A DNA stretch of 64,000 nucleotides from a virus (taxonomy: Duplodnaviria > Caudoviricetes). The stretch lies in the IMG/VR virus record IMGVR_UViG_3300028833_000071. One strand, given 5' to 3'. Each line of letters starts with the position of its first letter. Position 1 is the stretch's first letter. Below are positions 26,098-60,184 of the stretch, in pieces. The notes under the pieces were generated by a model. That model was not told the origin of the DNA. It searched no databases and was given only the letters and a program-made list of their open reading frames with translations. The translations under genes were made by a program, and so were the position numbers.

Positions 26098-26113
26098 TGG
26101 CATAGTTTTTGTA
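26098..26113 (+). promoter_or_regulatory. sigma54-like -24/-12 promoter
   Basis: TGGCATA-GTTT-TTGTA upstream of the DUF2828-like gene. Confidence 0.55.
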
Positions 26114-26232
26114 TATTAGTATTTGTGTTATTGAAAAAAAAAAGAAAATATTTTTTAAAAATTATTTGTTTTTTTAAAATTTCGTTTGTATATTATTTTT
26201 GTTGTTTAATTATGAACTTAAAATTGAAACAT

Positions 26233-27885
26233 ATGGCAAACATGAACAATGGATTTATTAAGGCCAATACAATTGGCGCAGGTGCAAATGACGCACGTAC
26301 AGAGAATGGTGCAATTTCTTACGCAACAATAGGTACAGCATTGCTTGACCAATTTGGTAAGGCAGGTTCTTTCCGTGGAAGAGAACTCATGGATGTATGG
26401 GCTGACCAATCTAAGTTGTGGTCGGAGGACCCTGAAAACGCTTTGAAGTTCCCATTCTATCTTAGAATGATTACCCGCCAATCAAACATTTTGAACGGCA
26501 ATAAGACCGAAAAGGTCCAAAAGGGTCAAGGTAATCGTGATGAATCTTTCAAGAGATTGCTTTGGATTGCTAAGTACCATCCGGAAGAGTTCTATCTTAA
26601 CCTTTGGTTGCTTCCTATCGTAGGCTCATGGAAGGATTTGTGGACATTGCTTTCATTCGAAGGTGCTGATGAGTATCTGAAAGCCAATAAGTTCTTCGAG
26701 GTTATGGCTGAGGGTATTTCTGACCCTAACCACAAGGACCTTGTAAAGAAGTATTTGCCTCGTATCCGTTCAGACAAGAAATGTACCACTCCATGGGCTA
26801 AGTCTACTAATATGTTGGCTAAACTCTTTGCTAGAACAGCTGGTTGGTCTTATAAGGAATATCGTGAGTTTAAGGCTACTGGTATTGCACATAAGTTCCA
26901 AACCTATATTTGCAAGGGCCTTTATAGCAGCATTGATTGGAAGACTATTCCTGGTAAGGCTTTGCTTAACCTTGTTAGTGGAAACTTCTTGAAGGCACAT
27001 AACCTTGAAGATAGTTACATTGAATGGTTGAAGAAGCAACCTGTAGCTAAGTTTAATGGTTATGCTTATGAACTTGGCCGTAAACTTAAGGAGTGCAAAC
27101 TTAATCCTAGTTTGGCTACCAAGATTACAATTGACAAGCAATTTGATGGACTTATTCAGACTGCATCAAAGAATAATGGTGCAATACAAGGAAATGTCCT
27201 CTGTGCTCTTGATACATCAGGCTCCATGACCTCATTGGTTGATGCTAAAAACAACATTTCAGCATATGATGTGTGTGTTTCACTTGGTATCTACTTCTCA
27301 GAGTTGAATCAAGGTGCATTCCATAATGTAGTTGCAATGTTTGATAATACATCAAGATTGATGACTCTATCAGGTACATTTACTGATAAGTATACACAAA
27401 TTGCTCGTAGTTCTGTCGCTTGGGGGTCAACCGATTATATGTCATTAGTGAATTTAATTGTCAAAACAAGAAGAGAACATCCCGAAATTCCGGTTGAAGA
27501 CTACTGTAAGACCATTTGCGTAATCTCTGATATGCAATTCAATCCTTCAAATAGTTGGACTTACAGAAATAATAAACTTGCAGAGCAAACAAATTATGAG
27601 GCTACGATTAAAAAACTTCGTGAAGTATTCCCTGAAGAGTTTGTTAAAGATTTTAAAATTATTTGGTGGTATTGTTCCAATTCAAGAACAAGCGATTTTC
27701 CATCTACTATGGAAGACTCAGGCACTTACATGTTATCTGGCTTTGATGGTGCTATCGTAAGTTTTGTGCTCGGAGGGGATATACCAACAAAGGTAGATGA
27801 AAATGGTAATACAGTACAGCCTTCAATGGAAGATATTGTTAATGCAGCTCTCAATCAGGAAGTACTAAGTTTGGTTAAAAACTAA
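26233..27885 (+). CDS. DUF2828 / TROVE-like protein with C-terminal vWA domain
   Basis: TENGA, KGQGNRD, GSWKDL, LDTSGSM, ISDMQF, MLSGF; codon usage suggests high expression. Confidence 0.8.
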   Translation: MANMNNGFIKANTIGAGANDARTENGAISYATIGTALLDQFGKAGSFRGRELMDVWADQSKLWSEDPENALKFPFYLRMITRQSNILNGNKTEKVQKGQGNRDESFKRLLWIAKYHPEEFYLNLWLLPIVGSWKDLWTLLSFEGADEYLKANKFFEVMAEGISDPNHKDLVKKYLPRIRSDKKCTTPWAKSTNMLAKLFARTAGWSYKEYREFKATGIAHKFQTYICKGLYSSIDWKTIPGKALLNLVSGNFLKAHNLEDSYIEWLKKQPVAKFNGYAYELGRKLKECKLNPSLATKITIDKQFDGLIQTASKNNGAIQGNVLCALDTSGSMTSLVDAKNNISAYDVCVSLGIYFSELNQGAFHNVVAMFDNTSRLMTLSGTFTDKYTQIARSSVAWGSTDYMSLVNLIVKTRREHPEIPVEDYCKTICVISDMQFNPSNSWTYRNNKLAEQTNYEATIKKLREVFPEEFVKDFKIIWWYCSNSRTSDFPSTMEDSGTYMLSGFDGAIVSFVLGGDIPTKVDENGNTVQPSMEDIVNAALNQEVLSLVKN

Positions 27886-27921
27886 GTATTTTTAATTAAA
27901 AAATCATTAAAAAAGAGGACC

Positions 27922-28890
27922 TTAGTGGTTCTCTTTTTTTGTTTTTAAATACAATAATAATTTGTTTTTATTAGTAAAATACTTTTCATCATCCACTTTT
28001 TCTTTAGTAAAATAAATTAATTCAACATTATTGTTTTCGCATAATTTTAATTTTTGTTTATCTCTTTCAATTTGTTTTTCAAATTCTTTTTCGTCACCAA
28101 ATAGTTTAACCGGTTGAAAATGTTGTTTTCCTTGACATTCAATGGCGATGTTATAATCAGGTAGATAAAAATCTATAAATTGATGACATAAAGTCAAATT
28201 ATTAATTAACCATTCAAAAGTTTTTTGTCTTTCAAAATTTATATTATTTTCTTTTAAAAAATTGTTAATTTCAGATTCTAAATGTGATTCTTTACATTGA
28301 GGACAACCTGATTTTGAAGTTAAATGATGGTCAGGTCTAACCCAAAAGTTTCCATGTTTTGGGCAGATTACGCAAACTTTTGTGTCACAATTAATATACT
28401 TAACTTTTGAATAATCATATACATTACCATGAATATTAACTGCTTTTTTTATAAATTCTTCAGTATTACTTCTTTGTGAGTTTCCTCGTTTATTATCATA
28501 GCATTTAATACAGCCACCACCTCTTAAATGATTATTTGGTGTTTGCCAGAATTCACCATGTTTAGGACATATAATACAAACTTTTGTCTGTGCATTCACA
28601 TATTCTACCTTGGAATAATCATATTTATCTCTATGAACTCTTTTCGCTTTTTCTACAAAATCTTTAGTAGAAGATAATTTTTCTTTTGATAAATTTTGAT
28701 AATGGCACTTTTTACAGTTGCATCCCTCTAAATGAGAACCTGGTTCTTGCCAAAATTCACCGTGTTCAGGACAAATTATACAAACTTTTGTATGGTTATT
28801 AACATATTCCACCTTGGAATAATCATATTTATTACCATGGATTTTTCTTGCTTTTTCAATAAATTCTTCTGTTGTTAAATTTTTAGACAT
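27922..28890 (-). CDS. Putative homing endonuclease (three YDYSKVEY...CPxHG repeats + PD-(D/E)XK/Vsr-like nuclease)
   Basis: Repeats HGNKYDYSKVEYVN..TKVCIICPEHGEFWQ; IDFYLPDYNIAIECQGKQH; late motif at 28905-28912. Confidence 0.8.
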   Translation of the reverse strand: MSKNLTTEEFIEKARKIHGNKYDYSKVEYVNNHTKVCIICPEHGEFWQEPGSHLEGCNCKKCHYQNLSKEKLSSTKDFVEKAKRVHRDKYDYSKVEYVNAQTKVCIICPKHGEFWQTPNNHLRGGGCIKCYDNKRGNSQRSNTEEFIKKAVNIHGNVYDYSKVKYINCDTKVCVICPKHGNFWVRPDHHLTSKSGCPQCKESHLESEINNFLKENNINFERQKTFEWLINNLTLCHQFIDFYLPDYNIAIECQGKQHFQPVKLFGDEKEFEKQIERDKQKLKLCENNNVELIYFTKEKVDDEKYFTNKNKLLLYLKTKKENH

Positions 28891-28953
28891 ATTGTTATTT
28901 TTTTATAAATAGTACTAATTTTTAGAAAATATTTGTTATATAACAAAATAAAT

Positions 28954-58902: not shown

Positions 58903-58928
58903 TAACTAAAATTTAAATTTTCTTAATT

Positions 58929-59894
58929 ATGACACAAGAAGAAAAGGCAAAACGCTATGATGAAGCTCTTGAAAGAGCCAAGGGTTTCAGGACACCGGAA
59001 CTCAAAGATGCCGCTGAACACATCTTCCCCGAACTCAAAGAGAGCGAGGATGAGAAGATAAGAGAACAAGTAGTTTATGCAATAAACCAATTACATGTTT
59101 GTGAATGTACAAAAAATAAACTTATTGCTTGGCTCGAAAAACAAGACGAGCAGAAACCTACTGATAAAGTTGAACCAAAATTTAATGTTGGTGATTGGAT
59201 TGTTTATGAGGGATTAGGAACATATAAGGTTGTTGAAATACACGAAGGATGGTATAGTGTAATTGATAACAATGATAGACGTTGGTCTGTAAGGTTTTCT
59301 ACAGAAAATTTATGCCATATATGGACAATTCAAGAAGCAAAGAATGGCGATGTGCTTGCTTTTGATAATGATACTATTGTAATATTTAAAGACCTTTATA
59401 ATAGTTCTACATTTCATTCTTATTGCCATATTGAAGATGGATTATTTGATGTTAGTAAAGATGATATGCCTGATTGGTGGGAAGGTGAAGGTTTTCGTCC
59501 AGCCACCAAAGAACAACGTGATACTTTCTTTGTAAAAATGAAAGAGGCAGGTTATGAGTGGGATGATAATAAAAAAGAGTTGAATAAAATTAAGCAAGAA
59601 TCTACTTGGAATGAAAAGATTAAAGGTCTCGATGAACTTGAGACATATATTCTTTCATTAGTGCCTGATAGGTCATTAGATGCTATTAAAGTCGATGCTA
59701 AAAATATTAGACACATAATCAATAAAGAACAGAAGCCTGCTGAATGGAGTGATGACGATGAAAAGTTCTTTAAAACAGCATTATGGCATATAAGTTATTC
59801 TGTCAGCAATGGCAAAAGCACAGATATCCATTGCGATACAACTGACTGGCTCAAATCGCTCAAGCCTATTGGAAGCCGAGTGATGAACAATTAA
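58929..59894 (+). CDS. Bacteroidales-phage modular hypothetical protein
   Basis: EEKAKRYDEALERAK, IFPELKESEDE, IAWLEKQ, VEPKF.VGDWI, WTIQEAKNGDVL, PATKEQRD modules. Confidence 0.65.
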   Translation: MTQEEKAKRYDEALERAKGFRTPELKDAAEHIFPELKESEDEKIREQVVYAINQLHVCECTKNKLIAWLEKQDEQKPTDKVEPKFNVGDWIVYEGLGTYKVVEIHEGWYSVIDNNDRRWSVRFSTENLCHIWTIQEAKNGDVLAFDNDTIVIFKDLYNSSTFHSYCHIEDGLFDVSKDDMPDWWEGEGFRPATKEQRDTFFVKMKEAGYEWDDNKKELNKIKQESTWNEKIKGLDELETYILSLVPDRSLDAIKVDAKNIRHIINKEQKPAEWSDDDEKFFKTALWHISYSVSNGKSTDIHCDTTDWLKSLKPIGSRVMNN

Positions 59895-59971
59895 TGGGTC
59901 TTGCGTTAGAAGCACCTGAAGGAATGTATGAAATTGTGCCATCAAGTATATAATTACTAAAAATTATTGTA

Positions 59972-60166
59972 ATGTCTGAAAAAGATTTTTATTTAACAGC
60001 GGCGTTATATGCCATGCAAGGAATGCAGGAAATGGGTGGAAAATTAGGTGAAATTGCTGAATTATTACCAAAACAAGTCGCCGAGCATTCGTTTAAATTT
60101 GCTGATGCGATGCTTGAGGAAGCAAAAAAACATAAATATTTTGTGAAAGAAAAGTCCAATGGATAA
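59972..60166 (+). CDS. Hypothetical phage protein
   Basis: AAL.AMQG...ADAML motif. Confidence 0.6.
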   Translation: MSEKDFYLTAALYAMQGMQEMGGKLGEIAELLPKQVAEHSFKFADAMLEEAKKHKYFVKEKSNG

Positions 60167-60168
60167 TT

Positions 60169-60184
60169 TGGCATAATTTTTGAT
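60169..60184 (+). promoter_or_regulatory. sigma54-like -24/-12 promoter
   Basis: TGGCATA-ATTT-TTGAT. Confidence 0.55.

Follow-up and report, generated by a model that had tools for sequence, protein, structure and literature searches.

The 64,000-nucleotide window studied here comprises bases 18118-82117 of a 147,462-bp IMG/VR virus record of a large, uncultured tailed phage (IMGVR_UViG_3300028833_000071, Caudoviricetes; G000 below), which has a GC content of 31% and a CheckV completeness of 41%. It contains a family of intergenic boxes, here termed class C and numbered in the sigma-54 convention, with the -24/-12 geometry of promoters recognized by the alternative sigma factor sigma-54 (RpoN). 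Comparisons with related phages and with gut Bacteroidales suggest that these boxes are probably promoters read by the sigma-54 of the host, mimicking a promoter class that serves heat-shock genes in Bacteroidota. Sigma-54 promoters are already known, as is their deployment for the chaperone genes of Flavobacterium; what appears to be new is their use by a phage, and full-text literature searches recovered no study in which sigma-54 boxes drive the genes of a phage.

The boxes form a distinct class of intergenic elements

The original prediction listed six matches to the pattern TGGCAYR-N4-TTGWW in the window, and all six are present at the positions and on the strands claimed: 26098, 32823, 58887 and 60169 on the plus strand, and 46255 and 47244 on the minus strand. 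In 100 dinucleotide-shuffled sequences the expected number of matches is 0.29, and not one of them reaches six. Each of the six lies between genes and points toward the next start codon, those at 32823 and 47244 are the same 16-mer, and the genes that had been named downstream of them (DUF2828/DUF7788, the RlaP nucleotidyltransferase, DUF932, the HD and P-loop kinase protein and DUF4326) are likewise confirmed.

The whole-record scan, which had been proposed as a check, yields 19 class C sites. They are cleanly separated from the background by a position weight matrix (PWM) built from the phage sites: all 19 score at least 17.7 bits, while the next best match, at 12.4 bits, lies inside a gene, and shuffled sequence yields about 1.5 matches at 12 bits or more. 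Since only 9% of the record is non-coding, the intergenic location of 19/19 sites cannot be due to chance. Moreover, all 19 are co-oriented with the next gene, none being found within a gene or facing the opposite way, and the next start codon lies at a median of 36 nt from the G of the TTG, in G000 as well as in each of two related phages, G113 and G001 (see below). The boxes of the window and the genes behind them are given below, with PWM scores and the distance from the G to the ATG; the class B box is of a second type discussed further on.

26098..26113, plus strand: class C box TGGCATAGTTTTTGTA, 22.7 bits, 101 nt to the ATG of the DUF2828/DUF7788 gene
26185, plus strand: class B box TTTGTATATT, between the 26098 box and the DUF2828/DUF7788 gene
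26212..27885, plus strand: DUF2828 + DUF7788 (TROVE/vWA-like) gene, 557 aa
32823..32838, plus strand: class C box TGGCACGGTTTTTGTA, 28.6 bits, 37 nt
32873..34574, plus strand: operon of a zinc-ribbon protein (158 aa) and an RlaP-family nucleotidyltransferase (407 aa)
46240..46255, minus strand: class C box TGGCATAGTTTTTGAT with A at -12, 20.7 bits, 22 nt
43789..46220, minus strand: operon of small open reading frames (ORFs) of 62, 105 and 171 aa, with a last gene for an HD + P-loop kinase protein (PNK-like), 374 aa
47229..47244, minus strand: class C box TGGCACGGTTTTTGTA, 33.4 bits, 51 nt
46308..47180, minus strand: DUF932 gene, 290 aa
58887..58902, plus strand: class C box TGGCACGATTATTGTA, 28.0 bits, 29 nt
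58929..60166, plus strand: genes of 321 aa and 64 aa without a family match
60169..60184, plus strand: class C box TGGCATAATTTTTGAT with A at -12, 17.7 bits, 32 nt
60214..63484, plus strand: operon of a 199-aa protein without assignment, DUF4326, a nucleoside 2-deoxyribosyltransferase and a 623-aa LAGLIDADG-domain protein

In the alignment of the 19 sites the information content is confined to positions -30 to -11, with peaks at TGGCAYR and TTG. The consensus, wGTTTGGCAYRGTTTTTG(T/A), is the RpoN -24/-12 layout minus the C at -12. The GG at -25/-24 within TGGCA(C/T), the spacing between the -24 and -12 elements and the G at -13 are each invariant (19/19), and the PWM scan finds no variants with shifted spacing. 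Position -12 is T in ten sites, A in eight and G in one; thus, the loss of the C, which had been noted for the window, extends to the entire record, and the GC doublet expected at -13/-12 is absent. There is no conservation upstream to -66, and downstream of -11 we find only an A/T richness that is not conserved in register; neither a -10 nor a -35 element is conserved in the 19 sites. The leaders ahead of the start codons are rich in A/T and lack a Shine-Dalgarno sequence, which is also the case in Bacteroidota.

Other promoter types were considered and rejected. The primary-sigma promoter of Bacteroidota (-33 TTTG/-7 TAnnTTTG) needs 19-21 bp between its elements, whereas the TTTG runs of the motif are 8 bp apart, and a TA before the second TTTG is not conserved. 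A sigma-70 promoter (-35 TTGACA/-10 TATAAT, 16-18 bp spacing) does not fit either: the distance from TTGGCA to a TATAAT-like run is 9 bp, and most sites either lack this run or have it out of register. Extended -10 promoters and those combining a MotA box with a -10 element are ruled out by the spacing and because no downstream hexamer is conserved.

Two class C boxes of the record are followed within 15-25 nt by a strong hairpin rather than a start codon (L133:7616-7680, G000 109733; L134:3206-3260, G000 125323), and could thus specify small RNAs or short leaders with a structured fold.

Related phages carry the same box, including its canonical form

The closest relative, G113 (148 kb, 35% GC), shares 58 matched proteins at a median amino-acid identity of 61% and a syntenic head module with G000. 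It has 64 class C sites, with a dense array at 81-101 kb, in which -12 is T in 32, A in 25 and C in 7. The more distant G001 (217 kb, 42% GC; 40 matched proteins at 28-70% identity) has 68 sites as against none for a reversed-pattern control, and there the boxes reach a density of one per 300-900 bp over 28-58 kb. In this phage -12 is predominantly C (C44/T22/A2) and -11 is A in 56 sites, giving the textbook consensus aGTTTGGCACG-N4-TTGCA.

The box is retained between G000 and G001 in front of the orthologous DUF2828, RlaP-operon, DUF932 and g137136 genes. For instance, the G001 orthologue of the DUF2828 gene has TGGCACGGTTTTTGTA directly 5' to it, while the DUF932 promoter, of the GTA form in G000, is of the GCA form in G001 (TGGCACGATTATTGCA). 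Because orthologous boxes are kept while the base changes in this manner, the -12 base is interchangeable within one promoter family.

Boxes of this type are also found beyond these phages: the 16-mer TTTGGCACGGTTTTTG is present in many IMG/VR contigs. One such set comprises linear elements of about 11 kb (L043:1-250, L043:10940-11190, and dozens of similar contigs) whose inverted terminal repeats each contain TTTGGCACGGTTTTTG(C/T)T in two to six tandem copies. These elements have all their genes on a single strand, with a normal TAtcTTTG box for the first of them. In the 223-kb phage record G003, pairs of boxes face each other 2 nt apart to form 34-bp palindromes (C1:41796-41829, 49641-49674, 50094-50127, 51433-51466); if these are promoters, transcription from them would collide. 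In G001 (L118-L119) around ten boxes have a hairpin with the conserved loop GGTATATTAAA about 45 nt upstream (e.g. 31505-31530, 35050-35080), making up a stem-loop-plus-promoter cassette.

Chaperone and TolC-type genes of gut Bacteroidales have an identical box

When 185,579 species genomes were scanned with GTTTGGCACGGTTTTTGYA, at least 120 matches in bacterial genomes were recovered, as opposed to about nine expected under a uniform composition. Among the matches listed, to which the following statements apply, most come from ruminant or other gut Bacteroidales of the families Paludibacteraceae, Bacteroidaceae and Prevotellaceae, and the exact 19-mer GTTTGGCACGGTTTTTGTA lies 5' of clpB, moxR-like and groES genes in ruminant-gut Bacteroidales. 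The genes and the forms of the box in front of them are:

clpB: GTA in most Bacteroidaceae, GCA in one
moxR-like AAA+ gene: GTA, with one GCA
htpG: GCA
groES: GTA
dnaK-like gene: GTA, in an assembly of low GC that is classified under Bacilli and yielded no RpoN
TolC-type genes: box 5' of the gene, including GTA forms

Additionally, the Lon-like gene of a Paludibacteraceae genome has TTGGCACGACTATTGTT. The TolC-type promoters display palindromes such as TGTGCGAAATCGCACA about 80-120 bp upstream, which is the normal look of an enhancer for a bacterial enhancer-binding protein (bEBP), the activator ATPase of sigma-54. The host chaperone promoters share no upstream element and often lie directly behind a terminator hairpin. 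Among the listed matches with organism names, T occupies -12 in 34 of 52 from Bacteroidota and in 7 of 28 others, counts that are not independent because many of the loci are orthologous. As the relatives carry the canonical -12 GC and host chaperone and TolC-type genes carry the exact sequence, these comparisons support a single promoter class of RpoN geometry.

The hosts are likely to be Bacteroidales. The candidate host genomes encode an RpoN with the canonical ARRTVAKYR box along with two to three bEBPs. A search of bacterial genomes with a protein encoded near the start of the record as a host probe found no relative, and a near-identity DNA search with 10 kb of the phage against cultured phages found no match.

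Two further occurrences in bacterial assemblies may be mentioned. The assembly OMZM01 (Prevotella sp. RUG106) has more than 20 copies of the repeat gaaaatcctgacgaGTTTGGCACGGTTTTTGYAggga on many contigs (L140, L148, L154, L160, L161 and more than 15 others). In termite-gut Bacteroidales (L152, L165, L189, L197, L238) the 19-mer box is immediately followed by long (GA)n runs, which could act as a length-variable switch.

The heat-shock promoters of Flavobacterium provide a precedent

In Flavobacterium psychrophilum, 5'-end RNA sequencing identified a sigma-54-type motif, SM4, that drives groES-groEL, lon, dnaK, grpE-dnaJ, htpG, skp and clpB (PMC9723704). The boxes with mapped transcription start sites (TSSs) of groES TTGGCATAATTTCTGAA, clpB TTGGAATAACAATTGAC and lon ATGGCACAATCCTTGAC (PMC9723704 supplement) have A at -12, and transcription starts 13-14 nt past the G (PMC9723704). 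The supplements of the same study also contain a TTGGCACGGTAGTTGTATATT box adjoining htpG and a mutagenesis-validated remF promoter with T at -12. Since TSS-mapped promoters and that of remF carry A or T at this position, either base is normal for the class in Bacteroidota, which answers the concern that was originally raised over the phage boxes: native promoters share their substitutions. The likeness extends to the -24 TGGCA(C/T)(G/A), the spacing and the short leaders without a Shine-Dalgarno sequence, and the phage box at 60169 differs from the TSS-mapped groES box TGGCATAATTTCTGAA at 2 of 16 positions. The phages differ from the SM4 regulon in having 19 to 68 boxes per 150-220 kb, as opposed to 0-9 strict-consensus sites in each Bacteroidales genome searched, and in placing them before accessory, RNA-repair and small uncharacterised genes rather than chaperones.

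This precedent also raises the question of whether the motif lacking the -12 C is read by another host sigma factor, whose heat-shock system the phage has copied. This C is missing from the groES, clpB and lon boxes with mapped starts as well as from each of the 19 phage boxes. Nevertheless, the -24 half is a perfect RpoN element at the exact spacing, GCA and GTA replace each other at orthologous sites, bEBP-like palindromes accompany GTA promoters of TolC-type genes, and the host RpoN has the canonical RpoN box. Hence, we consider a different host sigma highly improbable.

Recognition and activation of the boxes

The original prediction left open whether the sigma-54 is encoded by the host or the phage. 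While its assignment of the boxes to the sigma-54 class is supported, the host is favored as the source, because no RpoN DNA-binding domain (Sigma54_DBD) was detected in 11 phage records (about 2.2 Mb), most of them incomplete. Neither the RpoN core-binding domain nor Sigma70_r2 was found in G000, and searches of IMG/VR with one host RpoN and with a two-sequence alignment, which reach close relatives only, found no relative. Matches to the bEBP ATPase domain (PF00158) occur in three of five phage records, all in ClpB-like two-ring chaperones, and were accordingly rejected as bEBPs.

The boxes could instead be read by a phage factor, either a sigma of divergent sequence or a protein that appropriates the host primary sigma in the manner of MotA/AsiA, with the likeness to sigma-54 arising from convergence or deliberate competition. 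T4-like phages are known to reprogram the host polymerase (PMC2988021); six of the G000 sites run on into TATATT, as the class B box does; and none of the site-rich records is complete (41%, 41% and 61%, within a range of 29-96% for the phage records). Such a factor would have to account for a 19-mer identical to native host promoters, some with bEBP-type palindromes, for the canonical GC form in G001 and for the same box in unrelated phage-like elements; and the sequence downstream of -11 is not conserved in register. Together with the domains missing from G000, this makes a phage factor unlikely.

If host sigma-54 is indeed the reader, its holoenzyme would dock on TGGCAYR-N4-TTG and initiate about 13-14 nt past the G, so that the leaders would measure about 22 nt and lack a Shine-Dalgarno sequence. 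In the classical system region I and the region III helix-turn-helix (HTH) hold the fork junction at the -12 GC and thereby lock the closed complex, whereas -24 dominates binding (PMC5095919). Because of this dominance, boxes with a perfect -24 and a weakened -12 should still dock the holoenzyme, and they may be easier to open. Compared to the classical promoters glnAp2, nifH and pspA (PMC5095919, PMC7057263), the phage boxes share TGGCAC-N5-TTGC-like geometry with the GG at -24, the G at -13 and the absence of -10 and -35 elements, but lack the -12 C and an activator site within 260 bp, and their intergenic regions leave too little room for an enhancer acting by looping.

Opening would most likely depend on a host bEBP that acts without a nearby enhancer. 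In two candidate host genomes of the Paludibacteraceae we found a bEBP with receiver, AAA+ and lid domains that ends without an HTH_8 domain (L271:1072-2241, plus strand; L272:1249-2412, minus strand), whereas the other bEBPs have HTH_8. DNA-binding-domain-less bEBPs, namely FlgR of Helicobacter pylori and CtcC of Chlamydia, activate from solution. Similarly, an engineered DctD without its DNA-binding domain (DctD250) activates all sigma-54 promoters of Salmonella (PMC3844500). The two Paludibacteraceae proteins resemble these in terminating after the lid domain, and such an HTH-less bEBP could act from solution to open the sigma-54 holoenzyme wherever it is docked, a mode of action that would suit the enhancer-less boxes.

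The missing enhancers have a further potential explanation, in which the boxes mainly serve as sinks or roadblocks that drain sigma-54 from host stress genes or pause the polymerase. Closed complexes of the sigma-54 holoenzyme are stable and silent without an activator (PMC5095919), many sigma-54 sites of Salmonella are not promoters (PMC3844500), and the 64-68 sites per phage approach the roughly 70 of an entire enterobacterial chromosome. A pure sink would have no need of the strict orientation and the start-codon spacing seen in three phages, with none of 19 boxes misplaced, and we regard this function as very unlikely.

Several observations do weigh against reading the boxes as host sigma-54 promoters. 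None of the 19 G000 sites has the -12 C of textbook sigma-54 promoters, and no shared k-mer or palindrome was found at -260 to -8 of these boxes. The heat-shock motif of Bacteroidota was itself assigned to sigma-54 by motif likeness and promoter mutagenesis, not by an rpoN mutant. Strict patterns show no bulk enrichment in 101 Bacteroidales genomes (31 TTGTA matches versus 28 in the control, 48 TTGCW versus about 36); therefore, the link to the host rests on specific loci. As most phage records are fragments, a phage factor could sit in unseen DNA. Finally, three sheep-gut metatranscriptome studies cover 23-62% of a 10-kb stretch with six boxes, which fits a ruminant-gut origin; these runs consist of short, low-depth contigs that show no starts or ends, so that breaks at the boxes are unreadable as starts.

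Three motif classes precede phage genes

Analysis of k-mers enriched 5' of genes uncovered three motif families, with class C being one of them:

Class A: motif ACTATTTAT(A); precedes portal and major head genes
Class B: motif ttTTTGTATATTt; precedes DNA methyltransferases, a helicase, NUDIX, a clamp-loader-like ATPase and a ClpB-like chaperone; in the window at 9597, 14424, 26185, 34577 and 63496 (plus strand) and at 47592 and 54892 (minus strand)
Class C: precedes DUF2828/DUF7788, the zinc-ribbon + RlaP operon, DUF932, the HD + P-loop kinase operon, and DUF4326 + nucleoside deoxyribosyltransferase

Further genes behind class C boxes are an RNA ligase farther along and numerous small ORFs located between 113 and 140 kb of the record; the head genes and the DNA-metabolism operons are not behind class C boxes and carry the two other motifs. 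Class A, given its location 5' of portal and major head genes, is likely to be late. The genes driven by class C would be accessory, including a predicted RNA-repair set (the RlaP nucleotidyltransferase, HD-kinase, RNA ligase and TROVE-like protein), DUF932, DUF4326 and many small ORFs. By analogy with the early-gene cassettes of T4, class C may be an early or accessory class. The T4-type early cassettes (PMC2839356; T4 promoter classes, PMC2988021) and the present arrangement share one short promoter per small gene, dense box arrays among small ORFs (in G113 and G001) and three promoter classes per phage. They differ in that the early promoters of T4 are of the sigma-70 type, whereas the cassette described here has a -24/-12 box and does not use the primary-sigma consensus of the host phylum (TTTG/TAnnTTTG).

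We tentatively propose a fuller model, as a conjecture, in which a T4-like gut phage lineage with genomes of about 350 kb might have wired dozens of early or accessory one-gene cassettes to the sigma-54 heat-shock circuit of the host, in a stress-linked and enhancer-independent manner. The enhancer-less boxes with A or T at -12 would be opened by a host bEBP without a DNA-binding domain, or would fire with little activator help. Infection stress itself would then turn the phage genes on, while the pool of primary sigma can be shut down.

Phage transcription is generally thought to use the host primary sigma, phage sigmas or phage polymerases, and sigma-54 is usually regarded as a tightly locked, enhancer-dependent niche system. 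If the boxes work as proposed, they would represent a new route for taking over host transcription, one by which viruses exploit the heat-shock circuit of Bacteroidota, and would imply that sigma-54 promoters without a -12 C and nearby enhancers can be major promoters. The motif might further serve as a bioinformatic marker for the host phylum and the expression classes of uncultured gut phages, and the boxes as compact, stress-linked promoter parts for Bacteroidales genetics.

Additional features of the phage genome

The class A motif is found over 1-32 kb of G000 and scattered elsewhere, e.g. 5' of L131:4114-6204 and L131:15495-17447 (both minus strand); in it, reverse-complementing TATTTATA gives the T4 late box TATAAATA. 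The record has about 20 intergenic copies of the class B motif ttTTTGTATATTt, placed 26-34 nt 5' of start codons. This motif fits neither the primary-sigma consensus of Bacteroidota nor sigma-54, and its core corresponds to the 3' half of some class C boxes. A tRNA scan of G000 found none.

The phage encodes a two-ring ClpB/ClpC-like chaperone (window 9650-12244, plus strand), conserved in G001, G002 and G113. Over 640 aa it shares 41% identity with a ClpB of Bacteroidaceae that is itself encoded behind the same sigma-54-type box.

One contig in the RNA data joins the leaders of two class C cassettes, connecting L134:9903 to L134:11880 (G000 132020 to 133997) and omitting 1,976 bp with five small genes. 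It is seen in three runs from two samples, with a depth of 364 in one run, and represents a natural strain variant with a deletion exactly between the cassettes. This recalls the cassette-mediated modular shuffling known from T4-type phages (PMC2839356).

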